A stretch of DNA of 64,000 nt from NCBI RefSeq assembly GCF_913058315.1, contig NZ_CAJXQY010000003.1, positions 2,339-66,338 of the forward strand, in the 5' to 3' direction. Within the stretch, counting starts at the first letter, position 1, and each line of letters begins with the position of its first letter. The stretch comes from an uncultured Alteromonas sp. (GTDB lineage: Bacteria; Pseudomonadota; Gammaproteobacteria; Enterobacterales; Alteromonadaceae). Below the pieces are notes generated by a model. The model was not told the origin of the DNA, made no database searches, and was given only the letters and a program-made list of their open reading frames with translations. The position numbers and the translations under genes were made by a program. Below, in pieces: positions 3,960 to 41,110 of the stretch.

Positions 3960-5300
3960 TTAGCCTTGCTGAAACGGATACACCGAACCCAGCTTTAAGA
4001 TTTGCGTCAGTTCATCCAGAGCGGTGCGTGATTCAACCAACAGTTGTGGGTCGCACAAATCCTGCTCGGTTAACTGGTCGCGGTAATGTTTATCTACCCA
4101 GCCGTTGAGTCGTGAAAACAGCGCATTGTTCATCAGAGTGTTGGGATTAACTGCGCCAAGTTCGGCATCGGTAAGTGCTACGCGTAAGCGCAGACAAGCG
4201 GGACCACCGCCATTACGCATACTCTGTTTCACGTCGAAATAGTTTACGCTTTTAATGGGCGTGTCGCGGGTCACCAGTTCAGCCAGGTAGTTAGCAACAA
4301 CCGGATTTTCTTGACACTCAGACGGCGCAATAATTGTCATATTACCGTCAGGCAGGGTGAGTAACTGGGTGTTAAAAAGATACGTTTTAATGGCGTCATT
4401 CAGGCCCACTTCATCGCTTTTCACTTCGATAAAATGAAGTGGTTTGTCACCGAATTTAGCCCGGATTTCAGCCACGGCAGACTCACTGTTATGAAACGCA
4501 AGCTCATGATAGAAAAGTACATTCTGGTTACCAACGGCAATTACATCGTTGTGAAAAACCCCCTGGTCAATCACGTTCGGGTTTTGTTGGATGTACACCA
4601 CGCTTTCGTCGCTAAGACCGTGCAAGCGCGCAACCGCCTGACAAGCCTCGAAAGTTTGTCGGGCAGGGTAACGAGTGGGTTGTGGTAAATCATGGCGAAA
4701 CGCATGACGACCGTATACAAATACCTCAACGCCGGCGTGACCGTAGGCACTGCACAGACGGGTATGATTAGCCGCGCCTTCATCACCAAAATGATCGTTA
4801 TCGGGCAGGTGGCCATGGTGGGCAAAATATTTACTGTTGGCAAAGGTAGCCTTCAGAATATTGCCGGTCACCTGAGGTTCCAGCGAACGGTGAAATTTGT
4901 TGGTCAGGTTAGCCGGAGTAAAGTGCACGCGACCATCAGCCGTGTCGGCACTGGGCGATACGGTGGCGGCGTTGGCTGTCCACATACTGGACGCTGAGCA
5001 ACACGCCAGAAATACTTCTCGGGCCTGGGCTGCTGCCTGTTCCAGCACCTTAGCATCGCTGCCTGCGAAGCCGAGGCGACGCAGGGTTGCCAGATCAGGG
5101 CGTTCCTGGGGAGCCAGTACTCCCTGTACCATGCCCATGTCGGCCAGCGCTTTCATTTTCTGCAGGCCCTGTTTGGCGGCTTCTTTAGGGTTGCTGATAG
5201 CATTCGCATTGGAGAAAGAGGCGACATTGCCAAAAGACAATCCGGCATAGTTATGGGTCGGGCCAACCAGCCCGTCAAAATTCGCTTCACAATATTGCAT
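3960..5300 (-). CDS. astB: N-succinylarginine dihydrolase
   Basis: [22 protein letters not shown]-terminus, [15 protein letters not shown] and [15 protein letters not shown] motifs. Confidence 0.96.
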
Positions 5301-5682
5301 GACAACCTGCCTTAAATTTGAGTCATTCGGTAAACATATTGTCGAGCAAAAGGGCAGAATAACCGGACAGCGCCTATGATTACGCTATATATAAGTACAA
5401 CTTTTTTTTATTTAAGTGTTGTAATTTCTGCCGTTATTTGCGACAACCCGGCGCATTATACGTGTTTTAACTACGCTGCCAATCAGGGTGGTTAAAAAAT
5501 GCGCTATTTTGGGTGGGTGAAAAATAAACTTTGCGAATAAGTATGAAGAAGAACTTGTTTTCCATTCACTTTGTAGATATATGTTAAAAAAAGAAGCGCC
5601 AGACTATGTGAGTGTAATTGCCTTATTTTCTTCCTGGTTTGCTATCGAAAATTTAATTTATTCAAAGGTTTAATTCTTATTT

Positions 5683-8316
5683 ATGACAAAATCACTAGTC
5701 ATAGTCGAGTCACCGGCCAAAGCCAAAACAATAAATAAATATCTTGGCAAAAATTTTATTGTTAAATCTTCCGTGGGTCACGTACGCGACCTGCCAACCA
5801 AGGCGCTTGGTAAGGTGGAGCCGAAAAAACCGGCCAAAGAACTGAAAACGTTATCGGATGAAGCGAAGGCTAAATACCTGCGCGAGTACGAATATAAAAA
5901 GCTGGTTGACCGCATGGGGGTAGACCCTCAACACGACTGGAAAGCCCACTATCAGGTGCTGGAAGGCAAAGAGAAAGTGGTTAATGAGCTTAAAAAACTG
6001 GCCAAAGACGCCGACACCATTTATCTCGCAACGGATTTGGACCGCGAAGGGGAAGCGATTGCCTGGCATTTGCAGGAAATTCTTGGCCAGAAGGGCAAAA
6101 CTTACCAGCGGGTAGTGTTTAACGAGATCACGAAAAACGCCATTAAGGAAGCCTTTGAGCATCCCGGTGATGTGAATCAGGACCGGGTGGAAGCCCAACA
6201 GGCCCGTCGTTTTCTCGACCGGGTAGTGGGGTTCATGGTATCGCCGCTGCTTTGGAAAAAGATTGCCCGTGGCTTGTCTGCCGGTCGGGTACAGTCGGTG
6301 GCGGTGCGTCTGGTGGTCGAACGGGAACGTGAAATCAAAGCCTTTGTGCCCGAAGAATTCTGGGATGTCCATGCTGACCTGACCACTGGGGCCAGTGATG
6401 CTCTGCGGATGCAGGTGGTGAAGGAAAGCGATAAACCCTTCAAGCCGGTGAATAAAGCACAAACCGATGCTGCACTGGCCGTACTGAAGCCTGCTGACTA
6501 TGAAGTGGTGAGCCGCGAGTCGAAGCCGACCCAGAGTCGTCCTTCTGCGCCTTTCATCACCTCAACCTTGCAACAGGCCGCCAGTACCCGTCTGGGATTT
6601 GGGGTGAAGAAAACCATGATGATGGCCCAGCGCTTGTATGAAGCCGGTCACATTACCTATATGCGTACCGACTCGACCAACCTGAGCCAGGAGGCTCTGG
6701 AGGCTTGTCGTGGATACATTGGCGATAACTTTGGTGGCAAGTATTTACCGGAGTCACCTATTCGTTACGGCAGTAAGGAAGGCGCGCAAGAAGCTCACGA
6801 AGCCATCAGGCCGTCAAACGTAACAACCCTTGCTGCGACACTAAAAGACATGGAACGTGACGCACAGCGTCTCTACGAGCTTATTTGGCGCCAATTTGTA
6901 GCCTGTCAGATGACAGCTGCGAAATATGATGCCACTACGGTGAAAGTCAAAGCCGGTGATTTTGAGCTGGTTGCCAAGGGCCGGGTACTGAAATTTGATG
7001 GTTGGACTAAAGTGCAGCCGCAGAAAAGTAAAAAGGGTGAAGAGGATAAGTTGCTGCCAGATGTGAATCCGGGCGACAAACTCAATCTTAAGCAACTCGA
7101 TCCGAAACAGCATTTCACCAAGCCAGTGGCCCGTTTTAACGAAGCCTCGCTGGTAAAAGAACTGGAAAAGCGTGGCATCGGCCGGCCTTCTACCTACGCC
7201 AGCATTATCTCCACGATTCAGGACCGCGGTTATGTGCGGCTGGAGAACAAGCGTTTCTATGCAGAAAAAATGGGTGAGATAGTTACCGATCGCCTGATGG
7301 AAAATTTTGACGGCCTGATGAGCTACGACTTTACCGCCAACATGGAACAGCGCCTCGATGAAATCGCCGAAGGCCATGATAACTGGAAAGCGGTGCTCGA
7401 TAAGTTCTACAGCGATTTTTACAGCAAGTTACTGCTGGCCGAGCAGGAAGCTGAACAAGGCGGAATGCGGCCTAATCAGGCAGTACCGGTAGAAATTAAC
7501 TGTGATAAGTGCGGTCGTCATATGAACGTGCGTACAGCCAGTACCGGGGTATTTTTAGGCTGTACAGGCTACAACCTGCCGCCTAAAGAGCGTTGTACCA
7601 ACACCATGAACCTCACGCCTGGTGAAGAAGTGGTGCAGGTCGACAACGATGACGAGCAGGAGACCGAGGATTTACGCGCCAAACGCCGTTGCCCGGAATG
7701 TGGTACGGCCATGGACAGCTACCTGGTTGATGAAACACGCAAGCTACATGTGTGCGGTAACTCACCTGCTTGTCCGGGCACTTATGTGGAAGCGGGAACC
7801 TTCAAAATTAAAGGTTATGACGGGCCACTGATAGAGTGCGATAAGTGTGGCAGCGACATGGAGCTTAAAAACGGTCGGTTTGGAAAATACTTCGACTGTA
7901 CTAACAGCGAATGCAAAAACACCCGTAAGTTACTGCGGAACGGCGAGGCAGCGCCACCTAAAGAAGATCCGGTGGATTTACCTGAATTACCCTGTGAGAA
8001 AAGTGATGCCCACTTTATGCTCAGGGACGGGGCTTCCGGCATTTTCCTGGCAGCGCACAATTTCCCTAAATCACGGGAGACACGTGCGCCCAAGGTTGAG
8101 GAACTGGCCCGCTTCAGGGATCGTATATCGCCTAAGTTTTACTATCTGGCTGATGCGCCGAAAACCGATCCGGACGGTAACCCGGCTATTGTGCGCTTCA
8201 GTCGTAAGACTAAGCAACAATATGTCATGACCGAAGATGCTAAAGGCAAGGCCACTGGCTGGTCTGCGTGGTATCAGGACGGAAAATGGCAAGCCAAAGA
8301 CACTAAGAAGAAGTAA
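5683..8316 (+). CDS. topA: DNA topoisomerase I
   Basis: [21 protein letters not shown] start, [19 protein letters not shown], catalytic ITYMRTD, C-terminal zinc ribbons. Confidence 0.98.
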
Positions 8317-8327
8317 GCGAACAGATT

Positions 8328-8876
8328 ATGGCATCGTTACAGGATCAGTTGCTCAAAGCCGGTTTGGCCGATAAATCGAAAGCCAAACAGGCAAGAGCCG
8401 ATAAACGTAAAAAACAAAAGCTCAAAAATAAAGGCACCGCCGTTGAGCAGGACGAAAATAAACTGGCGGCACAACAGGCCGCGGAAGCGAAAAAGCAACG
8501 CGATCTGGAGCTTAATCAGCAACGCCAGGCGGAGCTTGAGAAAAAAGCCGTAGTTGCGCAAATTCGTCAGTTAATTACCGTTAACCAGCAGCCGAAAGGC
8601 AAGGGTGACACAGTGCTTAACTTTACCGACGAAAATGTGGTTAAACGCATGTACGTAAGTGATGCGGTGCATAAACTGGTGGTTGATGCCCGTCTGGCTG
8701 TGGTAAAACTGGATGAGGACTATTTGCTTATTCCAACGCCTGTTGCGGATAAAATCGCCGAACGTGACGCAAAGATGGTGATATATCGCGCCGATCTGCG
8801 AGAAGAGAACAAAGAAAAATCCGCCGAAGATGACTGGTATGCTGAGTATGAAATACCGGATGATTTAACCTGGTAA
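8328..8876 (+). CDS. DUF2058 family (YaiL-like) nucleoprotein-associated protein
   Basis: SLQDQLLKAGL start and Y..Y.IPDDLxW end are typical of this family; lies 11 nt after topA. Confidence 0.8.
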   Translation: MASLQDQLLKAGLADKSKAKQARADKRKKQKLKNKGTAVEQDENKLAAQQAAEAKKQRDLELNQQRQAELEKKAVVAQIRQLITVNQQPKGKGDTVLNFTDENVVKRMYVSDAVHKLVVDARLAVVKLDEDYLLIPTPVADKIAERDAKMVIYRADLREENKEKSAEDDWYAEYEIPDDLTW

Positions 8877-8896
8877 TGCCGATGAATGAAATTAAT

Positions 8897-8924
8897 AAGC
8901 CCGCCTGAACAGGCGGGCTTTTTT
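8897..8924 (+). terminator. Intrinsic terminator after topA-DUF2058
   Basis: AAGCCCGCCTGAACAGGCGGGCTTTTTT. Confidence 0.85.
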
Positions 8925-8935
8925 ACAGCCTCAGA

Positions 8936-9988
8936 TTACTGCAGTGAGTTGCCTACACCGATGAGTATGGTCGACATCACCAGTAGCGATATGCCTGCCA
9001 GCAGCAACAATCTGCTCTTGCGGTTGGCTCCTTTCCATTCGAGCAATGCCAGTCCCCACAGCGTTGAGAAAATAATGATACTGGCCATATGAATGGTCCA
9101 GCTCGAAAATTCATAGTCGCCCATGTGGCTTTCGCCCATGGTATAAAAGAAAAACTGAAAGTACCAAAATGATCCACCCAGCGCAGCTAACAGGTAATTT
9201 TTTATCATTCTGTCTGAGCCGAGGCGTTGCGATTGATTGTGTGTATAGCCACTAAATTCGGCTGCTGAGCGATTCTTATGGATAAGCCAGGCGCACCACA
9301 GGGCATTGGTGGTTAACCCGCCAGCCAATACCACACACAGTACTGGCAGACCCTGCCACAAATGGTCGGTACCAGCGGCCAGGGTGAGTTCCCGAATGGG
9401 CTTGCCGGCGGCAATACCAAAAGCAAAGCAGGAAGACATCACGCCTGAAAAAAGCGCAATTAACAGCCCTTTTTTCATATCGATCGCGCCTTCGGACTGA
9501 GCGCCGGTACTGCGGTTCTTTTCTGCGGTGGCTCGGGCCACCAGAATCACGCCCAGTAAGGTTAGAAAAGTACCCAGAATGGCAAACTGTCCACTTGGCG
9601 TTGCCAGTACTTTACCGATAGTACCGTCGAATACCGGTGGGCCGAGAGTGCCTAATACGGTGGTCAGGCCCAGTACAATCGCCATGCCTGAGGAAATGCC
9701 CATATACCGAACAGCCAAACCAAAAGTCAGACCACCCAACCCCCAGCCCAGGCCCCAAAGAAAACACTGCTGTAATACACTGAATGAGGTGGTACTTAAT
9801 ACATCAAACAGTTGTTGGGTTTGGATCCAGGCAAATAACCACGGACAAATAAGCCAACTGAACACCCCGCCGGTTAGCCAGAATATTTCCCACGACCAGC
9901 CTTTTATTTGTTTATAGGGTACATAAAAGCTGGCAGAGAATAACCCGCCCAACCAATGAAAAAACACCCCAAGCAATGGATTCTGCAT
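8936..9988 (-). CDS. rhaT: L-rhamnose/H+ symporter family (RhaT-like) sugar transporter
   Basis: GVFFHWLGG..SASFYVPYKQIKGWSWE and WGLGGLTFGLAVRYMGIS, about 10 TM segments, resembling E. coli RhaT. The substrate is not proven. Confidence 0.75.
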   Translation of the reverse strand: MQNPLLGVFFHWLGGLFSASFYVPYKQIKGWSWEIFWLTGGVFSWLICPWLFAWIQTQQLFDVLSTTSFSVLQQCFLWGLGWGLGGLTFGLAVRYMGISSGMAIVLGLTTVLGTLGPPVFDGTIGKVLATPSGQFAILGTFLTLLGVILVARATAEKNRSTGAQSEGAIDMKKGLLIALFSGVMSSCFAFGIAAGKPIRELTLAAGTDHLWQGLPVLCVVLAGGLTTNALWCAWLIHKNRSAAEFSGYTHNQSQRLGSDRMIKNYLLAALGGSFWYFQFFFYTMGESHMGDYEFSSWTIHMASIIIFSTLWGLALLEWKGANRKSRLLLLAGISLLVMSTILIGVGNSLQ

Positions 9989-10014
9989 TATTCCTTACTC
10001 CTGCTGTAAACCTG

Positions 10015-10048
10015 TTTTTGTAATTTTTAGGTGAACAATTTACAAAAA
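10015..10048. promoter_or_regulatory. Inverted repeat (9-16-9), candidate regulator site upstream of rhaT
   Basis: TTTTTGTAA-N16-TTACAAAAA in an AT-rich gap; a direct repeat CAAAAATAAT x2 lies at about 10094-10113. Confidence 0.35.
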
Positions 10049-10215
10049 ATACACATACAGGGAGAGAATACACAATTAATAAACATATATATACAAAAAT
10101 AATCAAAAATAATCATTTTTTTGGTTGCGTATGATTGATAGTGATTGATGTTGCCGGGGAAAAGGGGGGAGCTGGTGAGTTCAGCCAGCTCCGGTGTGGG
10201 GCAAATAAACGTCGA

Positions 10216-10938
10216 TTAAGGGACTATCTTGTGGGCGGCCAGCTGCTCGTAAAAAGGCAGGGCCTGATTGAGCACACCGAGGAGCGCATCGGGCAGCTCT
10301 GGCACTGGGGGCTCAGCCGGGGCGAAGCCGGTACTTTTCCAAACTTCCGGATACCAGTGCTCTGCCCAGGCGCCGTCGTTGGGATGGCCGCCTTCAGACC
10401 AACTCAGCATGGCAGGGTCCCAGGGGATACCAATAGCGTTGCAGAGCTTTTCCAGCATGGCCGGTGGATTCTGACGAATATCAGAAGAGTCGACGACGAT
10501 GGGATGTTGTCCTGACTCGTTAACGATCCGGTCAAACAACTGACACTGGGCACGAATGCCAATATCTTCCAGGCAGGGTTCACCATTTTTTTTATGGTAG
10601 CTGGCAATCACCCGTGCCGGGTGACGGATCAAAAACACATTACATACGTCTCCAAGCCAGTCCAGGGGAAAACCCTCGAGCATGTGATGAGGCATGTGTT
10701 TTTGATAAAAAACCGGTTTATTCTGTGGTGTAGGGCCAATACAGCGTTTGGCTACCGCCACCGGATCGGTCTCTTCGCGGGCAAATATTTCATCCTGCAT
10801 TGGGTGCACACGGTCGCTGTGCTTTAAAAACGGCGCATAAAATGGCTCGTCCCATACCGTACAATCGGCGCGAGCGCCAAATGCATACATCATGGCGGTA
10901 GAGAGATTGCGCGGGCCTGACCACATGGCTATTCGCAT
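10216..10938 (-). CDS. Sulfotransferase-like P-loop protein (family often paired or fused with class IV aminotransferase-like proteins)
   Basis: 5'-PSB-like loop WSGPRNLST and 3'-PB-like FLIRHPARVIASY; start MRIAM at 10938 with an AAGGAAG RBS. Confidence 0.78.
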   Translation of the reverse strand: MRIAMWSGPRNLSTAMMYAFGARADCTVWDEPFYAPFLKHSDRVHPMQDEIFAREETDPVAVAKRCIGPTPQNKPVFYQKHMPHHMLEGFPLDWLGDVCNVFLIRHPARVIASYHKKNGEPCLEDIGIRAQCQLFDRIVNESGQHPIVVDSSDIRQNPPAMLEKLCNAIGIPWDPAMLSWSEGGHPNDGAWAEHWYPEVWKSTGFAPAEPPVPELPDALLGVLNQALPFYEQLAAHKIVP

Positions 10939-11241
10939 GGGTGACTTCCTTATTATCGTGTTACCTGACACTGAGTAAGCTGACCGGTAGTGAATGCTCA
11001 TTAATGGCAAGCATAATCGGCCTGGTGGTGTTATTTCAAGTCTATTGTTAATATTTTATACTATATAATATTTTGTTTTGCGAGTAGGAAAATGCTAGGG
11101 TAACGCCGTGATTTATTTACTTTTAATAATTAGTGTTGGCGCGGATATTTTTAAACACCTGGACTCTAGGTTAAAACACACGGGCTGAAGTATACTTTTA
11201 TAGTGACCTATAAAAGCCAGTAACAACGTAATGAGGAAGCC

Positions 11242-12159
11242 ATGCAGGAACATAAAGCGGGCGGCGCACATGCGTCCATCGATGACGAACGTAATCAGGA
11301 TATTTTAATTTATATTAATGGCGATCTGGTGCCCCGGGCAGAAGCGAAGGTGTCTGTTTATGACAGCGGTTTTATGCTCGGTGACGGCGTGTGGGAAGGC
11401 TTGCGGTTGCATAAAGGCCGATTTTCTTTTATCGACGACCATCTCGACCGGTTATTTGCCGGCGCGAAAGCACTGGACATGGATATCGGTAAAACCCGTG
11501 ATGAGTTAAAAGCCGCTTTACAGGAAACAGTCGATGCGAATGGCATGACCGATGGAGTGCATGCCAGACTGATGGTAACCAGAGGCCCGAAGAAAACCCC
11601 TTATCAGGATCCCAGACTGAGTCTGTGGGGCCCGACTATTGTGATCATTGCTGAATATAAGTCCCAGGATTTGGTGCCGGTAGAACGCGGAATTAATCTG
11701 TTTACCGTGCATGTGCGACGTGGCCATCCTGATGTTCAGGATCCGCGCTTGAATTCTCACAGCAAAATTAACTGCATCACGGCGATGATTCAGTCTTATA
11801 AGGCCGGGGCCGATGAGGCACTGATGCTAGATCCCCATGGTTTTGTCAGCACCTGTAACTCAACCAACTTCTTTATTGTGCGTAAGGGTGAGGTGTGGAC
11901 GTCTACCGGTGACTATGCCATGAAAGGCATTACACGCCAGAAAACCATTGATGTCTGTAAAGCCCATGGTATTGCGGTAATGGAAAAGAATTTTTCACTG
12001 GTGGATGTTTACAGTGCGGATGAGGCCTTTGTTACCGGTACCTTCGGTGCCCAAACGCCGGTCGTTGATGTCGACGGCAGATCCATCGGTGAAGGCAAAC
12101 CTGGTCCCATGGTGAAGAAAATTCGTGAGTTGTACCATGCCATGGCAGAAGCTCAGTAA
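11242..12159 (+). CDS. Fold-type IV PLP-enzyme-like protein (IlvE/DAAT/PabC superfamily) with a non-canonical active site
   Basis: SVYDSGFMLGDGVWEGLR, HLDRL, GITRQ and TGT motifs; the canonical Lys position is N171 and the canonical Glu position is T204 (see findings). Confidence 0.85.
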   Translation: MQEHKAGGAHASIDDERNQDILIYINGDLVPRAEAKVSVYDSGFMLGDGVWEGLRLHKGRFSFIDDHLDRLFAGAKALDMDIGKTRDELKAALQETVDANGMTDGVHARLMVTRGPKKTPYQDPRLSLWGPTIVIIAEYKSQDLVPVERGINLFTVHVRRGHPDVQDPRLNSHSKINCITAMIQSYKAGADEALMLDPHGFVSTCNSTNFFIVRKGEVWTSTGDYAMKGITRQKTIDVCKAHGIAVMEKNFSLVDVYSADEAFVTGTFGAQTPVVDVDGRSIGEGKPGPMVKKIRELYHAMAEAQ

Positions 12160-12172
12160 CACGGTTTTGCAC

Positions 12173-13090
12173 CTAATGCTGGGATAAACAGTTATCCCAG
12201 TAAGGCTTGTCACCGTAAAAATCGGCAGCGAAATTGATAAAGGCTCTGACCTTACTTGCCAATAGCTGCCGGTGGGCGTAAACCGCGTATAAATGCAGTG
12301 GCTCGGGCTCGTTATCCCGCATAATGAGCCGGAGCCGGCCTGCATTGACCTCATCGAAACAAATAAAGGTGGGTTGCAAAACAATCCCCTGGCCGAGCAC
12401 CGCTGACTGGCACAGGAACTCACCGTGATTACAACTGACGGTGCCAATAATGTGATGATGGCGCTGGTTCAGATACTGATGGGCAGCCGGGCTGTTGTCA
12501 TTATCCAGTAAGCTGTAGCGCAGATAGTTGTGATTGATTAAGTCTTCCATAGTGTGCGGTTCGCCGTATTTGCTAAGATAGTCTGGCGCTGCACACATAA
12601 CGAGATTGATGGCGGTCAGGCGCTTGGCTATCATCGACGAGCTTTTCAGATGGCCAATCCGTAATGCCACATCAAAGCCTTCCTCAACAATATCCACTTT
12701 ACGATCATTGAGATGTAAATCCACGTCAATGTCGGGGTAGAGCTGTTGGAATTCGTTAATGAGAGGTGCCAGATGACGGGTGGAAAATGCTACCGGTGCA
12801 CTGATCCGCAATAAGCCATGGGCTTTATGCTGCAAATCACCTAACTGATTTTCCATGGCATCAATTTCATCGAGAACCTGACTGGCGCGAGGCAGATACT
12901 GTTGCCCGGCCTCGGTCAAATGCACCTTGCGCGTTGTGCGGTTAAGCAGGCGCGTAGCCAGATGGGCCTCAAGCTGAGAGACATACTTACTAATTAACTG
13001 CGGGGATTTATCGAGCTTATCCGCCGCGGCACTAAATGAACCGCTTCGCGCAACAATCACAAATGCCCGCATTGCCTCTATTCTGTCCAT
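12173..13090 (-). CDS. LysR-family transcriptional regulator
   Basis: N-terminal HTH (GSFSAAADKL...LLNRTTRKVHLTEAG) and a CrgA-like substrate domain. Confidence 0.95.
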   Translation of the reverse strand: MDRIEAMRAFVIVARSGSFSAAADKLDKSPQLISKYVSQLEAHLATRLLNRTTRKVHLTEAGQQYLPRASQVLDEIDAMENQLGDLQHKAHGLLRISAPVAFSTRHLAPLINEFQQLYPDIDVDLHLNDRKVDIVEEGFDVALRIGHLKSSSMIAKRLTAINLVMCAAPDYLSKYGEPHTMEDLINHNYLRYSLLDNDNSPAAHQYLNQRHHHIIGTVSCNHGEFLCQSAVLGQGIVLQPTFICFDEVNAGRLRLIMRDNEPEPLHLYAVYAHRQLLASKVRAFINFAADFYGDKPYWDNCLSQH

Positions 13091-13101
13091 GCGAATTCCA
13101 T

Positions 13102-13120
13102 TATCAACAAAATGTTGATA
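13102..13120. promoter_or_regulatory. LysR-type recognition site
   Basis: TATCAACA-AAA-TGTTGATA perfect 8-3-8 dyad containing T-N11-A, just upstream of the LysR start in the divergent gap. Confidence 0.7.
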
Positions 13121-13237
13121 GTTACTCTATTTTAACCCTCTTAATAAATCAATATGTGGATAGTAAAGTATCACCATCGATTCGAAACAGCGCAGGGCTG
13201 TTTCTCTATTCACCCATTAAGACGAGAGAGATTTAGT

Positions 13238-13687
13238 ATGAAAGCATTAGTAGCAAAGTTAATCAGTTCAAATGCAGGTGTGGCCGCGCTGATATTAAGA
13301 GTGCCCATTGGTCTTACGCTGGCGGCGCATGGCGCACAAAAGTTATTTGCCTGGTTTGGCGGCTACGGCCTCGAAGGTACCGGCCAGTACATGGCTAGTA
13401 TAGGTCTTGAGCCGGGTTATCTGATGGCACTGCTGGCCGGGAGTGCGGAATTTTTTGGTGGACTGGCCCTGGTTCTCGGTTTATTGACCCGTCCGGCCGC
13501 CGCAGTGACTGCATTTACTATGCTGATTGCTATTTTCACTGCGCATATCCAAAACGGTTTGTTTCTGTCTAACGGCGGTTATGAGTATGCACTGGCACTT
13601 TTCGCGGTAACGGTCTCATTGGCCATCACTGGTGCCGGCCGGCTTGCATTAGACAACGTTATTGCCCGGTCTTTGGCCGCAGAATAA
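13238..13687 (+). CDS. DoxX family membrane protein (YqjF/CatD-like)
   Basis: AHGAQKLFAWFGGYGLEGTG, AEFFGG and NGGYEYAL; start at ATG 13238, not the ORF-track 13154. Confidence 0.9.
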   Translation: MKALVAKLISSNAGVAALILRVPIGLTLAAHGAQKLFAWFGGYGLEGTGQYMASIGLEPGYLMALLAGSAEFFGGLALVLGLLTRPAAAVTAFTMLIAIFTAHIQNGLFLSNGGYEYALALFAVTVSLAITGAGRLALDNVIARSLAAE

Positions 13688-13749
13688 CCCGTTAATCACC
13701 AATGGTGCCTGTCAGGTTGGTCCTGGCCGGCAGCCCGGGAGGAAACACA

Positions 13750-14694
13750 ATGTTAGTCAATGGAAAATGGGATGCCGACTGGCAGCCCGTGCAGAAAAAA
13801 GATAAAGAGGGTCGGTTTATTCGTCAGGTGTCGTCCTTTCGTCATTGGATCACGCCCGATGGTTCTGCCGGCCCCACCGGTGCTGCGGGCTTTAAAGCCG
13901 AAGCGGGCCGCTATCATTTATATGTGGCGTATATTTGTCCGTGGGCATCCCGGGCGCTTGCAGTACGCGCACTGAAAGGCTTAACTGATATTATTACGGT
14001 CAGTGTGGTTAACCCACGGTTAAGCGAGCAGGGCTGGCAGTTTGGTGGTTACCCTGGCAGCACTGCAGATGAATTGAATCAGGCCACATACCTGCACGAG
14101 CTCTATACGCAGGTGGATCCGGATTACACTGGCCGGGCAACAGTGCCGGTGTTGTGGGATAAAAAGCAGCAAACCATTGTGAACAATGAGTCGGCTGATA
14201 TTTTACGAATGTTGAATACGGCATTTTGTGAGTTGGTCAATACCGGCCCGGATCTTTATCCCTCAGCCCTGGCTGAGCAAATAGACGAGCTTAATGAAGC
14301 CATTTACAGCACCCTCAATAATGGTGTCTACCAGGCTGGTTTTGCCTCGAGTCAGACTGCCTATGATGAGGCTTACAGCCATGTTTTTACAACATTGGAT
14401 CGATTGGAAGCCAGACTGGCAGACGGTGGGCCTTATTTATTGGGAGATAATCTGACCGAAACCGACATTCGATTGTTTGTCACCCTGATCAGATTTGATG
14501 CAGCTTATTACGGATTATTTAAATGTAATCGTCAGTTAATTCGTGAGTTTACCCATCTTAATGCCTATATGCATCGGATATGGGCCCTTGACGGGATAGC
14601 TGAAACGGTCAACATTGACCATATTAAAGCGGGGTATTATTCCATTAAGTCGTTGAATCCGGGCGGCATCGTGCCCCGTGGACCACAATTTTAG
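13750..14694 (+). CDS. Glutathionyl-hydroquinone reductase (GST omega-like, YqjG family)
   Basis: RYHLYVAYICPWASR, TVPVLWDKK..IVNNESADI and NNGVYQAGFA; start MLVNG at 13750. Confidence 0.9.
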   Translation: MLVNGKWDADWQPVQKKDKEGRFIRQVSSFRHWITPDGSAGPTGAAGFKAEAGRYHLYVAYICPWASRALAVRALKGLTDIITVSVVNPRLSEQGWQFGGYPGSTADELNQATYLHELYTQVDPDYTGRATVPVLWDKKQQTIVNNESADILRMLNTAFCELVNTGPDLYPSALAEQIDELNEAIYSTLNNGVYQAGFASSQTAYDEAYSHVFTTLDRLEARLADGGPYLLGDNLTETDIRLFVTLIRFDAAYYGLFKCNRQLIREFTHLNAYMHRIWALDGIAETVNIDHIKAGYYSIKSLNPGGIVPRGPQF

Positions 14695-14702
14695 GAGGTT
14701 TT

Positions 14703-15515
14703 ATGCAAGCGTCACAACAAGCATTGTTTATCTCCCATGGCGGCGGGCCTATGCCGTTACTGGGAGACCCAGGTCACCGTGCTTTAACCGAGCACCTTGC
14801 GCAGCTGGCTGCCACCATTCGCCGGCCGAAAGCTATCTTGATCATCAGTGCACACTGGGAAGAGTCGGTCGCTACAGTAACCTCCAACCCAACCCCTGAG
14901 TTGATTTACGATTACTATGGCTTTCCAGCAGAAAGTTACGCAATTAAATACCCTTGTGCCGGGGAGCCTGAGCTCGCACGCCAGGTCACTCAGGCCATCC
15001 GGGCAAGTGGCATTGAGGTGGCTGAAGACGCGAAGCGTGGCCTCGACCACGGTGTATTTGTGCCGCTGAAGATTATGTATCCGGACGCCGATATTCCATG
15101 TGTACAGCTATCACTGGTTAATACGCTGGATGCCGCAGCGCATATACGCATCGGTCAGGCTCTGGCAGATTTAGATTATGATGACCTGCTTATCCTTGGC
15201 TCAGGGTTTTCTTTTCACAATATGCGATCATTCTTTGCCCCTGATACTGCGCAGAGTCAGGCTATGAACCAGGGCTTTGAAGACTGGTTGAAAAACGTAT
15301 TATCTAATCCGTCGATGACCGAAGCGGAGCGTCAGAAGCAACTCATCGGCTGGGAACAGGCGCCGGGAGCGCGTTATTGTCATCCCCGCGAAGAACATCT
15401 GGTGCCGCTTCATGTGTGTTACGGGGTAGCGGGCCGCGCTGCTGACGTAGCCGACTCGGTAGTCGTACTTAATAAACAGGCCGGGACGTTTGGCTGGTTT
15501 AGCCAAAACGCCTGA
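14703..15515 (+). CDS. DODA-type extradiol ring-cleavage dioxygenase (YgiD/LigB family)
   Basis: FISHGGGP, ISAHWE, RGLDHGVFVPL, GSGFSFHN and CHPREEHL motifs. Confidence 0.9.
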   Translation: MQASQQALFISHGGGPMPLLGDPGHRALTEHLAQLAATIRRPKAILIISAHWEESVATVTSNPTPELIYDYYGFPAESYAIKYPCAGEPELARQVTQAIRASGIEVAEDAKRGLDHGVFVPLKIMYPDADIPCVQLSLVNTLDAAAHIRIGQALADLDYDDLLILGSGFSFHNMRSFFAPDTAQSQAMNQGFEDWLKNVLSNPSMTEAERQKQLIGWEQAPGARYCHPREEHLVPLHVCYGVAGRAADVADSVVVLNKQAGTFGWFSQNA

Positions 15516-15525
15516 TAAACGGTTT

Positions 15526-15561
15526 AGCCGGGCGACTTCCTACTTCAATAGTTGCCCGGCT
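15526..15561. terminator. Hairpin between convergent genes, one arm inside the kinase CDS
   Basis: AGCCGGGCGAC-N14-GTTGCCCGGCT (11 bp, one G-U pair). Confidence 0.45.
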
Positions 15562-16550
15562 GATACCGTGTCAATGGCCTGTGCCGTCTGCAATTGCAAC
15601 GCGCGGTTAATTTTTAAATGGGCGGGACTCCAGCCCGCTAAAAAGCGGTGAAAGTCGGCGTTAGCCACACAATACAATTTTCGCCAGCTATCACAAATAG
15701 CCAGACATTCCTGGTGACTAACACGTTTGCCCAGTGCGCTGCTTAACTGCTCAAAATAAAAATCCAGACAGTCTTCGCTGCGCTCGAGCAGTGCTTGCTC
15801 TGACAGTGCGCTCCCCAAAAAGTACGCCACATCCTGGACACCAATACCACCACCGACATACTGAAAATCCACGGCGGCTACTTCCTGGCCATCGGCACTG
15901 AAACAGAAGTTAGCGACTTTGGCATCACCGTGAACCAGAGTGCGATAGGGACATTGCTGTAATGCCTGATCAAAAGCCGCCGCAAACTGTTTGAGGGGGC
16001 TTTGGGCCATTTTATTGAATTCGTCCGGGCGGGTTGCCAGATGCCAGTAACACCCCTGGTCCCACAAGCCTTGTGGCGGCTGATGAATATAGCAGGCATG
16101 AAATGCCGCCAGCCACGCCAACACGGGTTTACAACCTTCAGGGCTAAGTTGTTGATGTCGATAATCAAAACCGGCTTGATTCAGATCGCTCAGCACCAGC
16201 GCCAGCCGTTTAGTGACAGCACTGTCTTCGGCATCCGAGGCTATCAGTTGCGCCAGATTTCCGCAGTGAGTAAAGCGTGGGGCGTAATGGGTGTAGAAAG
16301 CCTGCTCTACAACATAGGAACGCCATTTGCGCTGCAAGCTGTGCTGACTGCTCCAGCCTCTTGGATGAGCGAAGTTTTCTGGTTGGCTGATGAGCTTTAT
16401 AATTACACGGGACTGCCTGGCCGGCGAGTAGCAACGTAGCAACTGACCAAAATCACTCCACAGCGACTGGACCTGCTCAAACTGGTCTGCATTCGGGTCC
16501 TGCAAAAGACCTTTGAGCCATAAAAGCGGTAGAGGCTTAGATGAATTCAT
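15540..16550 (-). CDS. APH/choline-kinase-like phosphotransferase (EcKinase/DUF1679-like)
   Basis: VQSLWS N-lobe motif, Brenner-type HGDAKVANF and VDFQYVG. Confidence 0.8.
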   Translation of the reverse strand: MNSSKPLPLLWLKGLLQDPNADQFEQVQSLWSDFGQLLRCYSPARQSRVIIKLISQPENFAHPRGWSSQHSLQRKWRSYVVEQAFYTHYAPRFTHCGNLAQLIASDAEDSAVTKRLALVLSDLNQAGFDYRHQQLSPEGCKPVLAWLAAFHACYIHQPPQGLWDQGCYWHLATRPDEFNKMAQSPLKQFAAAFDQALQQCPYRTLVHGDAKVANFCFSADGQEVAAVDFQYVGGGIGVQDVAYFLGSALSEQALLERSEDCLDFYFEQLSSALGKRVSHQECLAICDSWRKLYCVANADFHRFLAGWSPAHLKINRALQLQTAQAIDTVSAGQLLK

Positions 16551-16569
16551 ATTCTTACCGGGCTTCAAC

Positions 16570-16598
16570 AAAAAAGGCCAGCAATGCTGGCCCTTTTT
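16570..16598 (-). terminator. rne intrinsic terminator
   Basis: Minus strand GGCCAGCATTGCTGGCCTTTTTT, about 15 nt after the rne stop. Confidence 0.85.
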
Positions 16599-16612: not shown

Positions 16613-19600
16613 TTACAGACTGGCAGGACGCGTGGTCGGTGCCGAGGCTGTTGCTGTCGCATTTGCCATCGTTGCCAGACGGCCTGAAGCGGTCAGGGCG
16701 GGGCGCTGATCGTCGGCGCGGCTGATCACGGTGATTTCAACCGTTGACGCTGCCACTTTGGCTGGGCTGGTCATCGGGTGAGTCGCCGTAAATTTACCTA
16801 AACTGCTGGCCATTGCTACCTTAACCGGCGCCGCGGGGGCTGCCTTTTCTGCCGTTTGCGGGGCAGGTGCTTGTTCTGCCTCAGCAACAGGCTCTGGCGT
16901 GCTTTCCAGCGCTGCGGGTTTTTCCTCAACCTTAGGTTCAGGCGCTTGGTCTAGGGGCGCCGCAGTGGTTTCAGCGTTAACTGGCTGCTCTTGTGTGGCC
17001 GTTGATTCAACGGTTTGGGGAGCGGCTGGCTCTTCAGCTTGTGGCGCCACAGCTTCGGTCTGTGCGCTCGTTTCGGAACCCGCTTGCTTCGAGGTTTGTT
17101 CCTCGGTTGCCGGGCTTTGGGCTTCGGCGTCGAGGTTTATTTCTACCTGTTTTGGCTCATCAGTTTCTGCTGTCTGTGCCACTTCACTGCCAGAGGTCTC
17201 GCTATCTTCTACAGTGCTCGCATCCTTTGGCTCAGGCGCATCAAACTGAAGTTCATCCTGTTGCGCAGGCTGGGCCGGGGCGTCATCATCAGATTTTTCC
17301 TTCTTACGACGCTGACCAGCGGCGCGGGCATGACGAGGTGAACGTCGACTGCGGCTGCGCGATCCTTTTTCTGAACGGGCTTTGTCGTCCTCGTCCTGAG
17401 CATTATCGTCGTTGCTGTCCGCCGCATTGTCAGCCTTTTCATTAACGTCATCTGATGACGCCTCTGAACCTGATGCCGCCGGGGTAGCCTGATTTGGCTC
17501 TTCAACTACCTCAGGAGTCTGCTGTGACTGGCTGCCAGTTTCCTGAACCGCTACTGCAGTTGCCGGTTGTTCAGCGATTGGCTGTTCAGTTTCTGATGCC
17601 GCCTCGCTAGCTGTTTGATCGGCTTTATCCTTAACCGCCTGAGTACGTACAGGATGTTTGTCAGTGCCGCCTTCAGCACGTACGCTGCCTTTTAATTCGC
17701 GACGCTGACGACGCTCTTTAACCGGCTTTTTACGCACAGGCTTGTCGGTGTCATTGGCACCATCGTTCTGTTGCGCTTGTGGTTGCTGTTGTTTTTGCGG
17801 TTGCTGTTGTGTTTGCGGTTGCTCAGCAGCCTCGTCTTTAACCTTGTCGGATTTTTCCGTCTGGTTTCTGTTACGCGAGCGATTACGGCCACGGGTTTGC
17901 TTAGGCTTATCCTGGCTTTTGTTATCACTGCTATCAGATGACTTTTCGCTAGTTGGCGCTGTAGTTTTCTCGTCGCTATCGTTACGACGATTTTTGTTAT
18001 TACCCGAACGATTGTTTCGACGTCTGTCGTTATTACGGCGACGGTTGTTCTGGTTATTGTTGTTGCGTGGTTTTTCTTTTGGCTTCGGTTTTTCCTCAAC
18101 CTCTTCCTCGCTGGCAAATAAGCCGGATAACCATTTGCCGATTCCGGCTAATAAACCCGTTTGCTTTTCTACGGGCTTCTCTTCCGCTTTCGGTGGTACT
18201 ACCGGTGCCTGGCTAGGTGCTATCAGTCCTTGTAAGGCTGGTTCTTCACGCTTTGCCGGAGCCGTTACGCCGGGTGATGCTTCTTTGGTTTCTACCTCTG
18301 CCAGGCTGATATTGTAGCTGGCATCAGTCACCACATCGTCAGCACGGTGACGTAAAATCTGATAATGAGGTGTATCCAGATTTGGGTTCGGGATGATGAT
18401 CAAACTGACATCGTGACGCTTTTCAACATTCTGTACGGCTTTGCGCTTTTCATTCAGCAAATAGGTTGCTACAGGTACAGGCAACTGGGCTTCAATCTGA
18501 CCGGTATTATCCTTGATGCTTTCTTCTTCAAGAATACGCAGGATTGACAACGCCAGTGATTCGGTACCACGGATAGTGCCATGACCAGAACAGCGTGGGC
18601 AGACATTATGCGCAGACTCACCCAGTGACGGGCGCAGACGCTGACGGGACATCTCCAGCAAACCAAAGCGTGAAATGCGGCCTAGTTGCACTCTTGCACG
18701 GTCGGGACGCACAGCATCTTTCATGCGGTTTTCCACTTCGCGCTGGTGTTTTACCGGTGTCATATCGATAAAGTCGATAACCACCAGACCACCAAGGTCA
18801 CGCAAGCGTAACTGACGCGCAATCTCATCGGCTGCTTCAAGGTTAGTGTTTAGCGCCGTTTCCTCAATATCACCGCCTTTGGTTGCGCGGGCTGAGTTAA
18901 TGTCAATAGAGGTTAATGCTTCTGTGGGATCAATCACAATTGAACCACCGGAAGGCAGGCGTACTTCACGCTCAAAAGCCGACTCAATCTGACTTTCAAT
19001 CTGATAGTGACTGAACAGCGGCACGTCGCCTTTATAAAGCTTGACGCGGCTGGCGAAGTCCGGGCGAACCAGTTCAATGTGCTGCAATGCCTGTTCGTAA
19101 ACACGCTGTTTATCGATTAGGATTTCACCCACATCGCGACGTAAATAGTCGCGAATGGCGCGCACAATAACATTACTTTCCTGGTGAATCAGGAAGGGGG
19201 CTGAGCGTTCTTCTGCAACTTTTGAAACTGCTTCCCAGTGGGTTAACAGAACCCGTAAATCCCAGTCCAGTTCTTCATAGGATTTACCCACACCAGCGGT
19301 ACGAACAATCAGACCCATGCCATCAGGCAGGTCGAGTTTCGACAGTGCGGCTTTCAGATCAGTACGTTCGTCGCCTTCGATACGGCGGGAAATGCCTCCG
19401 GCACGAGGATTGTTTGGCATTAATACCAGGTAGCTGCCAGCCAGCGACAGGAAAGTGGTTAACGCTGCGCCTTTCTGGCCGCGTTCTTCCTTATCGATTT
19501 GAACGATAACTTCCTGGCCTTCTTTGATAACGTCCTTGATATTAGGACGACCTTCGAGCTTGTAATTTTTTGGAAAGTAGGTGCGGGCAATTTCTTTGAG

Positions 19601-19807
19601 AGGAAGGAAACCGTGGCGATCGGCGCCGTAGTCAACAAAGGCAGCTTCTAAACTGGGCTCTACGCGGGTAATTTTACCTTTGTAGATATTCGCTTTCTTT
19701 TGCTCGTGTCCGGGACTTTCTATATCTAAATCATACAAGCGTTGCCCGTCTACCAGGGCAACCCGCAACTCTTCTTGTTGAGTTGCATTGATTAGCATTC
19801 TTTTCAT
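16613..19807 (-). CDS. rne: Ribonuclease E
   Basis: [24 protein letters not shown] start, [18 protein letters not shown] catalytic region, Zn-link CPRC, disordered C-terminal scaffold. Confidence 0.98.
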
Positions 19808-29299: not shown

Positions 29300-30127
29300 A
29301 TGACTGATACCCATGGACTGGCTCCACTGCAACAATTTGCCCTCAATGACCGGCTGGCCAACTATGGTGACGGTACGTTTACCACTATGCAGGTGTCCGA
29401 TGGTAAGGTTGCCCTGTTAAATCGACACATTGATCGTCTGGTAAATGACAGCCAGGCACTTGGCTTAACGGTTGCCGCTGACGCCATTCGTAAGGTCATA
29501 GTGGCCGCTTTAGCAGCGCGCAGCGACGGCGTGCTAAAGGTGTTAATTGGCGCTGGGCAGGGGGGGCGTGGCTATGCGCGACTGGCCGAACCAACAGTAA
29601 ACGTTGCGGTAAGCTGGCACGACGTGCCTGCTGTTTATCAAAGCTGGCAACATCAGGGTATTCATGTAGGTACTGTGCCTGTGACCTTAGCCAGGCAACC
29701 TTTGCTGGCCGGGTTAAAACATGCCAACCGCTTAGAGCAGGTGTTGATTAAACAGGCTCTGGTGCGAACCGATTTCGACGACGCCATTGTGACCGACACT
29801 GAGCAAAATGTTATTGAAGCCAGTGCCGCTAATCTCTTCTGGCAGACCGGCAATCAGTGGTTTACCTCTTCGCTGGCGCTGGCTGGCGTTAATGGCGTTA
29901 TGCGGCAGTTTATCCTCGACCACCGTCCGGATATCAACATTATCGAACAACAGTTAACTGAGATAGCACACGTAGACGCGATGTTTTTATCCAATGCACT
30001 GATGCAAATTGTGCCGGTGAAAACCCTCACGCTGGGTGAGTCCAGACGGGAACTGGCTATTGCGCCGGTACTGTCGTTACAGAGTGCTCTGGCGGCGGCT
30101 TATGCAGGAGAATACGGTGCTGCGTAA
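29300..30127 (+). CDS. pabC: 4-amino-4-deoxychorismate lyase
   Basis: YGDGTFTT, GGRGY, GLKHANRLEQ (Schiff-base K140) and IEASAANLF (E173); conserved fabF-pabC-mltG order. Confidence 0.9.
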   Translation: MTDTHGLAPLQQFALNDRLANYGDGTFTTMQVSDGKVALLNRHIDRLVNDSQALGLTVAADAIRKVIVAALAARSDGVLKVLIGAGQGGRGYARLAEPTVNVAVSWHDVPAVYQSWQHQGIHVGTVPVTLARQPLLAGLKHANRLEQVLIKQALVRTDFDDAIVTDTEQNVIEASAANLFWQTGNQWFTSSLALAGVNGVMRQFILDHRPDINIIEQQLTEIAHVDAMFLSNALMQIVPVKTLTLGESRRELAIAPVLSLQSALAAAYAGEYGAA

Positions 30128-40385: not shown

Positions 40386-40906
40386 ATTTCTCTACTGATT
40401 CGCTCAGTTTGATTATTATTTCATTAGGCAACAAATGGTTCCGTTAGCGGTATGTTAAATCATCGTTGCAAAATGTTTTGTTAATATACCTGCTTTTTAA
40501 ATTCTTAAAAGGCTTTTCCAGCAAATGAGTGCTGCTTTGCACTAATTGATAATAAGTCAGGCACAAAATCCAGTATTGTACAAATTAACACTATGCTTAA
40601 ACCATAAATAGTAAATATAAGCTTCTGAAATATAATAATAAATTAAATTCCTTTTTGGGCGTTCTGCATTCAAAGGCTCAATTTTACCTTTAAACACCTG
40701 TTTAATATACACAGAATTGATAGCCGATATTCATCAGTTTTGTACATTTTATCGATTAGAATGACGGTGTTTCATTAACTTTTTAGTGACTAAGTACAAA
40801 GCAAAGATCACACCACATAAGGTAAAAGTGTTAAAATCTTATCAATTAGTTAAGGTGCTTTACAAAAAGCTTGCATTGTTACGAAAATGTAACTATACAT
40901 ATGGGG

Positions 40907-41110
40907 CGTTACAAACGGTTAACCTGATTTACCGCTTGTAACGGTTCAATACGGATTGAGAGAACTGTATTGAATTTAGCACTGCGTTTAGGCAATAGCG
41001 GGTCAGCCTGCACTTAATTACCGGTTAATCGGTTGGGTATCAGATAAGCGATGATTAAGGCCAACAGCGCAAATAATTAAAAAAGTGTTAATCTCATTGG
41101 AAACCAAATT
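40907..41110 (+). other. Structured 5' leader of the TonB receptor operon (candidate cis-regulatory RNA)
   Basis: Tandem hairpins CGTTACAA/TTGTAACG (40907-40943) and TTCAATAC/GTATTGAA (40945-40974), downstream of a TTGCAT-17-TATACA promoter-like element (40871-40899). Confidence 0.35.

Follow-up and report, generated by a model that had tools for sequence, protein, structure and literature searches.

The closest described relatives of the gene considered here are known from two structures in the Protein Data Bank (PDB), one of an 'aminotransferase-like protein' of Variovorax paradoxus (7Z79, released in 2022) and one of its N174K mutant (9J32, released in 2025). Both were the top PDB matches of a 305-residue protein encoded in a 64,000-bp stretch of DNA from an uncultured Alteromonas sp. 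(contig NZ_CAJXQY010000003.1), to which we refer as the window. The window protein and 7Z79 are 52% identical over 292 columns (E=1.8e-96), a close relationship that extends over their full length. Both carry an Asn at the site of the Schiff-base Lys of ordinary aminotransferases, a hydroxyl residue at the site of the Glu that contacts the pyridine nitrogen (N1) of pyridoxal phosphate (PLP), and a cation at residue 175 (numbering of the window protein). The motifs SHS and CNSTNFF are common to both, as is a complete phosphate cup. They differ in that 7Z79 has Arg175 and Ser204, whereas the window protein has Lys175 and Thr204. The motifs LNSHS[KR]xN and [ST]CNSTNFF, with Asn at the Lys site, Ser or Thr at the Glu site, and Lys or Arg at the site of a Tyr that bonds O3' of PLP, are all found in the window protein, which is a further member of the 7Z79-type family. 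The replacement of Lys by Asn, to which an earlier note made from the letters of the window alone had drawn attention, is not a new observation, as the family stands in the PDB under a name that marks it as something other than a normal aminotransferase. Our literature search, with subscription journals outside it, found no function for this family, for the Sulfotransfer_5 family (PF19798) of its partner or for its plant relatives, and no paper on 7Z79 or 9J32.

The canonical members of the fold, fold type IV, are the branched-chain aminotransferases (BCATs; 5MQZ, 5CM0), the D-amino acid aminotransferases (DAATs; 1DAA), the (R)-amine transaminases (ATAs) and the aminodeoxychorismate lyase (ADCL) PabC. 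They share with the window protein the fold, the domain, the phosphate cup and many structural residues. In the window protein, however, the Lys is replaced by Asn, the Glu by Thr, the O3' Tyr by Lys, the equivalent of Tyr95 by His107 and the equivalent of Phe36 by Trp51, and there is an extra N-terminal motif. Moreover, while canonical enzymes are linked to ilv or pab genes, the window protein is linked to a sulfotransferase-like gene.

Two other groups of enzymes bear on how such a protein might work. ColD (GDP-4-keto-6-deoxymannose 3-dehydratase), E1/AscC and SpnQ are fold-type I dehydratases dependent on PLP or pyridoxamine phosphate (PMP), in which the Schiff-base Lys is replaced by His. 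They set a precedent for an aminotransferase scaffold that works without the Lys, and a sister subfamily of the one described here also has His at this site. The window protein, however, is of fold type IV and has Asn, and ColD, E1 and SpnQ keep an acidic N1 residue, act on nucleotide sugars and have no sulfotransferase partner, so that the analogy is one of principle only. In CurM and OLS, sulfation creates a leaving group and a neighboring domain then carries out an elimination.

Replacement of the Schiff-base lysine and the N1 glutamate

Residues 49-274 of the window protein matched the Pfam domain Aminotran_4 (PF01063; E=3e-40), and Foldseek and HMMER matched the protein to dozens of BCAT, DAAT and ATA structures, in agreement with a fold of type IV. 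None of the NCBIfam models for BCAT, DAAT or ADCL reached its curated cut-off, and all fell far short. The model that came off best, PRK08320, has a cut-off of 363 bits and gave 256; ilvE_I gave 205 (cut-off 245.6), D_amino_aminoT 158 (277) and pabC_Proteo 83 (177). An AlphaFold2 (AF2) model built from a 21-sequence alignment had a predicted local distance difference test score (pLDDT) of 75. Most of the fold was confident, but pLDDT fell below 50 at residues 158-174 and 191-206, the segments that hold N171 and T204, which may reflect the shallow alignment or genuine mobility of the loops. Since the model is unreliable in the active-site loops, it served to confirm the fold only, and no argument from distances was drawn from it.

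The assignment of the active-site residues rests on HMMER alignments to the archaeal BCAT structures 5MQZ (E about 1e-59) and 5CM0 (6e-57), which are about 40% identical to the window protein and need no gap to align with it between about residue 145 and the C-terminus, and on 9J32. In these alignments rlN171shsK175iN faces niKslnYlN, and vsT204cnstN faces vsEgsgdN. Asn171 thus falls on the Schiff-base Lys (IlvE K159, DAAT K145, PabC K140), Thr204 on the Glu at the pyridine nitrogen (IlvE E193, DAAT E177, PabC E173) and Lys175 on the BCAT Tyr that bonds O3'. When 7Z79 and 9J32 were each aligned to the window protein, the sole difference between them was the column of N171. That N174K was engineered in this column indicates that the crystallographers had made the same assignment of the Lys site.

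The earlier note had arrived at these assignments by way of the canonical PabC of the window, which indeed reads K140 (in KHANRLEQ) and E173 (in IEASAAN). Its residue numbers were exact (NSHSK from 171, T204 in STCNS, R70 in HLDRL, GITR at 229-232 and TGT at 265-267), and the alignments to 5MQZ and 5CM0, with 9J32, bear out the change of the Lys to Asn and of the Glu to Thr. The placing of K175 near IlvE Y164 is borne out by the BCAT Tyr, and the intactness of the cup by its conservation in close homologs. Contrary to what had been stated, the alignment to PabC was not free of gaps: BLAST gave 33 gap columns in 265, with 21% identity. We dropped PabC as a reference for the mapping because at this distance the alignment is locally ambiguous at the Lys.

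To describe conservation we used 202 unique close homologs, drawn from 120 database hits and 84 genomic loci. The loci were retrieved with the peptide patterns NSHSK[LI]NCI and DE[AG]LMLDP, so that invariance of columns 171-179 is circular for these 84; T204, the other positions and the 120 database hits are unaffected. N171, H173, K175, T204 and N206 were each present in all 202 sequences, and the cup residues R70, G229, T231, R232, T265, G266 and T267 in 194 to 201 of them. These active-site residues are the most conserved of the whole protein. The cup is thus complete (R70, I230-T231 and T267 are all conserved), and its R70 and GITR elements are common to the Lys-less proteins and the canonical enzymes. 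The motif H10-x4-D15-x-R17-N18, in contrast, was found in the Lys-less clade only and is missing from canonical BCATs.

When the gene was compared with two Alteromonadaceae orthologs, 126 and 123 codons, respectively, showed synonymous differences only, and 13 and 12 showed non-synonymous ones. The roughly tenfold excess of synonymous changes indicates purifying selection, and the gene is neither a pseudogene nor the product of a sequencing error. A local degeneration, with homologs that carry Lys and Glu at these sites, had been named as what would overturn the earlier note; it is contradicted by Asn and Thr being invariant in the 202 close homologs. In a scan of one genome per species the family was present in at least 586 species and, among the matches listed, in Alpha-, Beta- and Gammaproteobacteria, Gemmatimonadota and Rubrobacteraceae. 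Identity within the family is typically 60-70%, well above that of ordinary BCATs.

Beyond the close homologs, two Lys-less subfamilies could be told apart, to which we refer as Asn-type and His-type after the residue at the Lys site. In the representatives, which had been clustered at 50% identity, the motif of the V. paradoxus subgroup of the Asn-type (7Z79, P0241, P0253, P0264 and P0285) is LNSHSR...[A/S]SCNSTNFF, with Arg at 175 and Ser at 204. Thus, of the pattern whose conservation the earlier note had wished to see examined, N171, K175 and T204 proved invariant in close homologs, and in this subgroup K175 gave way to Arg and T204 to Ser. As Arg is unable to form an aldimine, the conserved property of position 175 in the Asn-type is a positive charge. 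By alignment, then, the Asn-type conserves a positively charged residue at 175 and one with a hydroxyl group at 204. The His-type clade, which includes the plant proteins, has Leu, Met or Gln at 175. Plant-type proteins read DSKIH171HNNL175LNN...GFVAE204TNATN, with His at the Lys site, the Glu kept and Leu or Met at 175.

The two subfamilies agree in the phosphate cup and in residues on the substrate side. Derived residues common to both are N18, R32, W51, H107, L110, K117, K140, N206 and T208. All of these except L110 were scored as present in the window protein, in at least 85% of both subfamilies and in fewer than 30% of canonical sequences. W51 replaces a canonical Phe and H107 a canonical Tyr, and the column of N18, which is shared by the plant proteins, is a gap in 73% of canonical sequences. 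Because of these shared residues we regard the Asn-type and the His-type, on present alignments, as one sulfotransferase-linked clade. A rough neighbor-joining tree separated the two, but it was not relied on, since the derived residues are shared. Several of the shared gains are basic, which suggests a ligand more anionic than a branched-chain amino acid. By these comparisons, the window protein belongs to a widespread Lys-less clade of fold type IV under purifying selection, in which the Lys has been replaced (by Asn here, by His in the plant-type sister) and the Asn-type has also lost the N1 Glu (to Thr or Ser). The cup persists, and the old site has acquired basic or polar residues, as judged from the aligned positions K/R175, R32, K117, K140, H107, W51 and the D-x-R-N motif.

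Three further representatives have a D-P-R-N-like N-terminal motif and Arg175 and carry Lys171 with Thr204 (P0266), Lys171 with Gly204 (P0324) or Gly at both sites (P0277). Their sequences suggest that they may represent steps on the evolutionary path from a true transaminase to the Lys-less forms.

The Sulfotransfer_5 partner, as neighbor and as fusion

The gene that lies divergently 303 bp from the Lys-less gene codes for a protein that matches Sulfotransfer_5. The mechanically called open reading frame (ORF) of this gene, 10216..11010 on the minus strand, is over-extended, with a TTG start 24 codons upstream of the ATG at 10938. Homologs of the partner are 237-244 residues long and begin MRIAMWSGPRN, and the true product probably has 240 residues. 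Its AF2 model had a pLDDT of 93. The best fold matches were the tyrosylprotein sulfotransferases TPST1/2 (5WRJ, 3AP1) and the sulfotransferase domains of CurM and OLS (4GBM, 4GOX), with E values of 1e-5 to 1e-4 and TM scores of 0.55-0.64. The family profile of the partner also gave hits among these solved relatives, at E=3e-6 (CurM) and 6e-5, and identity to them is only 13-17%.

The partner has a loop, W6-S-G-P-R-N-L-S-T14, which we take to be the 5'-phosphosulfate-binding (PSB) loop from what is generally known of sulfotransferases. This loop is kept in the eukaryotic and plant fusions described below as W-S-x-P-R-S-L-S-T. An R-x7-S element, R105-x7-S113, aligns with the CurM sequence LVRHPYSVIES. 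With the sulfotransferase fold, the PSB loop and the R-x7-S element all in place, the partner is, by model and motif, a sulfotransferase-like protein of the type that uses 3'-phosphoadenosine 5'-phosphosulfate (PAPS). The likeness to known sulfotransferases is one of fold and profile, and the acceptor of the partner may differ from those of CurM and OLS, whose sulfotransferases are polyketide synthase domains that act on carrier-protein-bound intermediates with a thioesterase partner, and from those of TPSTs, which act on peptides. In the literature found that mentions PF19798, there was no characterized member of the family.

To see how general the pairing is, we surveyed the neighbors of the aminotransferase-like gene in 84 non-redundant loci with mechanically called ORFs. 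A homolog of the partner lay within 6 kb in 68 of the 84, and in 66 it was on the same strand and immediately downstream. The two ORFs overlapped by 4 bases in 24 of these 66 loci, and in 20 more the called ORFs overlapped through over-extended starts. In the other 16 loci no partner was seen; 4 of them are cut too near the gene to tell, and a fifth, L007, is cut on the upstream side, on which a divergent partner would be found. No third gene was conserved; the maximum was 16 of 84 loci, accounted for by sphingomonad synteny (lipoamide dehydrogenase, E2) or by shadow ORFs.

A divergent arrangement was limited to the window and its relative in Alteromonas oceani (L008), and it is as a divergent neighbor that the window gene has Sulfotransfer_5 adjacent to it. 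A scan of the 303-bp intergenic region for promoters and terminators gave one weak sigma-70-like site on the minus strand, which is no more than expected by chance. Rfam scans found no riboswitch or other RNA in the window or in eight related loci. In a plastic-associated metatranscriptome (X19), a relative 95-99% identical was assembled as separate contigs for each gene, with the break in the intergenic region, which is consistent with two divergent transcripts. Contig depth over window positions 8800..13300 was 24 for the sulfotransferase-like gene, 12 for the aminotransferase-like gene and 3-7 for the adjacent RhaT-like transporter gene, although depth is weak evidence. In three other runs (X4, X6 and X8), which cannot show expression, coverage was flat with adapter ends.

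The two domains also occur in one polypeptide. In an exhaustive search of the representatives, all 10 long ones (518-763 residues) were fusions of an N-terminal Sulfotransfer_5 to a C-terminal Aminotran_4 domain. The contig of one of these also carries Ras and RCC1 genes, which points to a eukaryote. Another of the 10 is the 'branched-chain-amino-acid aminotransferase-like protein 1/2' (BCAL1/2) of land plants, which has 555-560 residues and both domains, and is 80-86% identical among the angiosperms sampled. BCAL1/2 thus has the same two components as the window pair, no Schiff-base Lys, the residues of the clade, the cup and the sulfotransferase motifs. It differs in that the Lys site is occupied by His, the Glu at 204 is retained, position 175 is Leu or Met and position 205 is Thr, and in being fused with the sulfotransferase first, the reverse of the bacterial gene order. 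The clade's conserved partner is therefore seen, from motif and neighborhood, to be a PAPS-type sulfotransferase-like protein. In a limited search, with subscription journals outside it, we did not find this near-universal partnership or the link to BCAL1/2 described.

Some plant models of about 930-980 residues (P0411, P0444, P0459, P0468, P0487, P0503, P0510 and P0511) join BCAL to PF10294, a methyltransferase domain of the FAM86/EEF2KMT type. The addition recurs across many species and is probably a conserved neighbor gene that has been merged.

The partner is not found everywhere. P0262, a bacterial single-domain protein of the His-type, has no adjacent sulfotransferase gene, so that the link is not universal for this type. 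Where no sulfotransferase gene was found, the neighbors included an amino-acid ABC transporter, an NhaC-type transporter with an M20 peptidase and, judged by sequence alone, a DAACS-type symporter and MFS transporters. These contexts hint at a substrate that may be an amino-acid-like acid. In L004 (10289..11953; GCA_021774795.1) the NhaC-type transporter and M20 peptidase genes flank the gene, and in this single case a sulfatase gene (PF00884) lies two genes off.

A possible role for the former PLP pocket

We infer that the window protein would not work as a transaminase, a racemase or an ADC lyase through an internal aldimine, and that K175 does not stand in for the Schiff-base Lys. That it is no ordinary BCAT or DAAT, as the earlier note had it, agrees with the sub-threshold NCBIfam scores, the family-wide replacement of both Lys and Glu, and the deposition of an Asn-to-Lys mutant. 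No part of the protein is better conserved than the former PLP pocket, and we take this pocket to be a working site and not a relic. Our preferred reading, which we hold tentatively and as somewhat short of probable, is that the pocket has been retooled to work without a Schiff base on an anionic sulfo- or phospho-ligand, in concert with the sulfotransferase. The phosphate cup would be the anchor point for an ester of sulfate or phosphate, with a second anionic group bound by the newly gained cationic residues. The pair would function as a unit whose target is a small anionic metabolite: the sulfotransferase would transfer sulfate from PAPS, and the aminotransferase-like subunit would bind and transform the sulfated small molecule, or present the acceptor. 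In one example, sulfate could serve as a leaving group, as it does with the CurM and OLS sulfotransferases. That the pair may act in a coupled manner is suggested by the overlap of the genes in operons and by their fusion. The earlier note had offered, as one option, a protein that does without PLP and holds a phosphate or sulfate ester in its cup. This idea is plausible, and it gains strength from the sulfotransferase as operon or fusion partner, which the note had not recognized.

Several observations weigh against the reading we prefer. About 1 locus in 7 has no adjacent sulfotransferase gene, and P0401, a relative of the V. paradoxus type with N, R and S at the three sites, lies not beside a sulfotransferase gene but beside those for an enolase-superfamily protein, an AsnC regulator and an amino-acid ABC transporter. 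(In L090 its gene, 5001..5927, overlaps an MR_MLE_C gene upstream and the AsnC-type regulator gene downstream, with ABC-transporter fragments nearby.) The protein can therefore work without a partner encoded next door. The Asn-type and the His-type differ exactly at the four residues nearest to the pyridine ring (171, 175, 204 and 205), and may thus not share one chemistry. The AF2 model is unreliable precisely in the active-site loops. Tyrosylprotein sulfotransferases match the partner as well as the 'activating' sulfotransferases do, and the likeness to the latter may merely reflect how few bacterial sulfotransferases have been solved. Finally, the cup, the hydrophobic ring-stacking Met227 and the Thr or Ser at N1 would also suit PLP or PMP held non-covalently.

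This last point leads to an explanation that we consider unlikely but worth serious attention, namely that the protein is still a B6 enzyme, with non-covalent PLP or PMP in the cup and a non-transaminase chemistry that does without an internal aldimine. Thr or Ser at N1 would disfavor a quinonoid and transamination, and the sulfotransferase would supply or consume the substrate, which might carry a sulfate ester positioned beta to the reacting carbon. A Lys or Arg near O3' and an N1 partner that is not acidic are known from other PLP enzymes, among them alanine racemase and fold-type II enzymes, and Thr or Ser at N1 from fold-type II enzymes of beta-elimination and replacement. In line with such a role, the cup residues are conserved in close homologs, the ring-stacking position is still hydrophobic, the active-site residues are the most conserved of the protein, and the sister subfamily combines His at the Lys site with Glu204, the same swap as in ColD and E1. 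With a shared cofactor, however, one would not expect the residues in contact with the pyridine to differ between the subfamilies as they do, N/K/T/C as against H/L/E/T. The depositors' name, 'aminotransferase-like', and their choice of N174K also suggest, but do not prove, that the wild type does not bind PLP in the normal way.

It seems quite unlikely that the protein is a dead pseudoenzyme, that is, a scaffold, an oligomerization platform, a module for acceptor recognition or an allosteric sensor, with all the chemistry done by the sulfotransferase. In its favor, both ancestral catalytic residues are gone, the pairing or fusion with another enzyme looks obligate, and class IV aminotransferases, which form dimers or hexamers (there are PDB entries with 6 chains), would be suited to be scaffolds. 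Against it, the pocket of a mere scaffold should drift, yet N171-S-H-S-K-x-N-C and T204-C-N-S-x-N are invariant, and new polar and basic residues specific to the clade line the pocket. Moreover, in some genomes the protein is retained with no sulfotransferase gene beside it, in contexts of amino-acid transport and catabolism.

That the protein is an ordinary BCAT or DAAT in which K175, one helical turn on, forms the Schiff base is very improbable. K175 is invariant in close homologs, and a BLAST alignment to PabC can be made to put the Lys region near K140. However, K175 gives way to Arg in the V. paradoxus subgroup and to Leu, Met or Gln in the His-type, the N1 Glu is gone, the curated BCAT, DAAT and ADCL models stay below their cut-offs, and in the alignments to BCATs at about 40% identity, which have no gaps here, K175 faces the Tyr. 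The same substitutions of K175 speak against the relocated Lys with non-transaminase chemistry that the earlier note had offered as an option. That the gene is a pseudogene in decay, or that an error of sequencing or assembly lies behind the two catalytic codons, is scarcely conceivable given the same residues in 202 homologs from several phyla, the tenfold excess of synonymous changes, the recurrence of the same gene sequence in many independent runs and a crystal structure of a homolog, 7Z79, in which Asn and a hydroxyl residue take the places of the Lys and the Glu.

Neighboring genes and the meaning of the family

The positions of the features are collected in Table 1.

Table 1. Positions, strands and supporting observations for features of the window (position 1 is its first nucleotide)
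Feature	Position	Strand	Observation
Lys-less class IV aminotransferase-like gene ('Asn-type', N171/K175/T204)	11242..12159	+	ATG-start ORF, 305 aa
N-terminal motif H10-x4-D15-x-R17-N18	11269..11295	+	H10 198, D15 201, R17 201, N18 202 of 202
Arg70 codon (HLDR), phosphate cup element 1	11449..11451	+	R 201/202
Asn171 codon, Schiff-base Lys position	11752..11754	+	5MQZ/5CM0 alignment, 9J32 column, 202/202
Lys175 codon, BCAT Tyr position, cationic	11764..11766	+	K in 202/202 close homologs
Thr204 codon, N1 Glu position	11851..11853	+	5MQZ/5CM0 alignment, T 202/202; Ser in 7Z79 subgroup
G229-I-T-R232, phosphate cup element 2	11926..11937	+	G 201, I 193, T 199, R 201 of 202
T265-G-T267, phosphate cup element 3	12034..12042	+	T 201, G 201, T 194 of 202
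Divergent intergenic region, 303 bp	10939..11241		Same spacing in Alteromonas oceani L008
Partner gene, Sulfotransfer_5 sulfotransferase-like, 240 aa from ATG at 10938	10216..10938	-	PF19798 E=1e-77
W6-S-G-P-R-N-L-S-T14, P-loop-like	10897..10923	-	Invariant or nearly invariant in 27 homologs
R105-H-P-A-R-V-I-A-S113, R-x7-S of putative 3'-phosphate site	10600..10626	-	R105, S113 invariant; kept in fusions
Cluster of LysR, DoxX, GST and extradiol dioxygenase genes	12173..15515		LysR gene on minus strand, others on plus
EcKL/APH-type kinase gene	15540..16571	-	343 aa
RNase E gene	16613..19807	-	S1, RNase_E_G and thioredoxin-like domains
Canonical PabC gene	29300..30127	+	K140, E173
GntP permease gene	37892..39268		Lies upstream
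ROK-family regulator gene	39276..40385	-	
Intergenic region, 725 bp	40386..41110		Low-GC stretch
TonB-dependent receptor gene	41111..44173	+	

The canonical PabC gene is followed, up to 31500, by an MltG-like (YceG) ORF and the start of a thymidylate-kinase-like ORF, in the usual pabC-mltG-tmk order. With a canonical PabC present, the organism has both a normal ADC lyase and the Lys-less protein. Next to the Lys-less gene, and convergent with it, lies a LysR gene, which is found in the same place in L007 and L008. It is followed by genes for DoxX, a glutathione S-transferase (GST, with N- and C-terminal domains) and a LigB-type extradiol dioxygenase. This cluster looks like a unit for the detoxification of quinones or aromatics, unrelated to the Lys-less protein. 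Beyond it are the genes for a protein with ecdysteroid-kinase-like (EcKL) and aminoglycoside phosphotransferase-like (APH) kinase domains and for RNase E, the latter of which explains an AT skew of -0.28 and a raised GC content at 16-18 kb. Farther along, a 725-bp intergenic region between the genes for a ROK-family regulator and a TonB-dependent receptor coincides with a stretch of low GC content (0.43 in the 40-42 kb bin).

Automatic annotation calls members of the family BCAT, D-amino acid aminotransferase or aminodeoxychorismate lyase in hundreds of bacterial genomes, and the plant version a 'BCAT-like protein'. All of these names must be wrong, as both of the chemistry-defining residues are absent. 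The family is thus large, very strongly conserved and mis-annotated, and its conserved pairing with a sulfotransferase-like protein provides a concrete handle that can be tested. Through culturable Alteromonas, Sphingopyxis or Erythrobacter, the bacterial two-gene module could bring to light what the plant fusion does, and could show whether a PLP fold has been converted to a chemistry that is independent of the cofactor or uses it non-covalently. A single two-enzyme system extending from proteobacteria to all flowering plants (BCAL1/2), in which a fold-type IV site without a Schiff base has taken on a new chemistry, either on a sulfate ester derived from PAPS or with B6 held non-covalently, is at this point a doubtful proposal. 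If true, it would mean a new class of reaction for fold type IV and a function for a plant gene family that has long gone unannotated.

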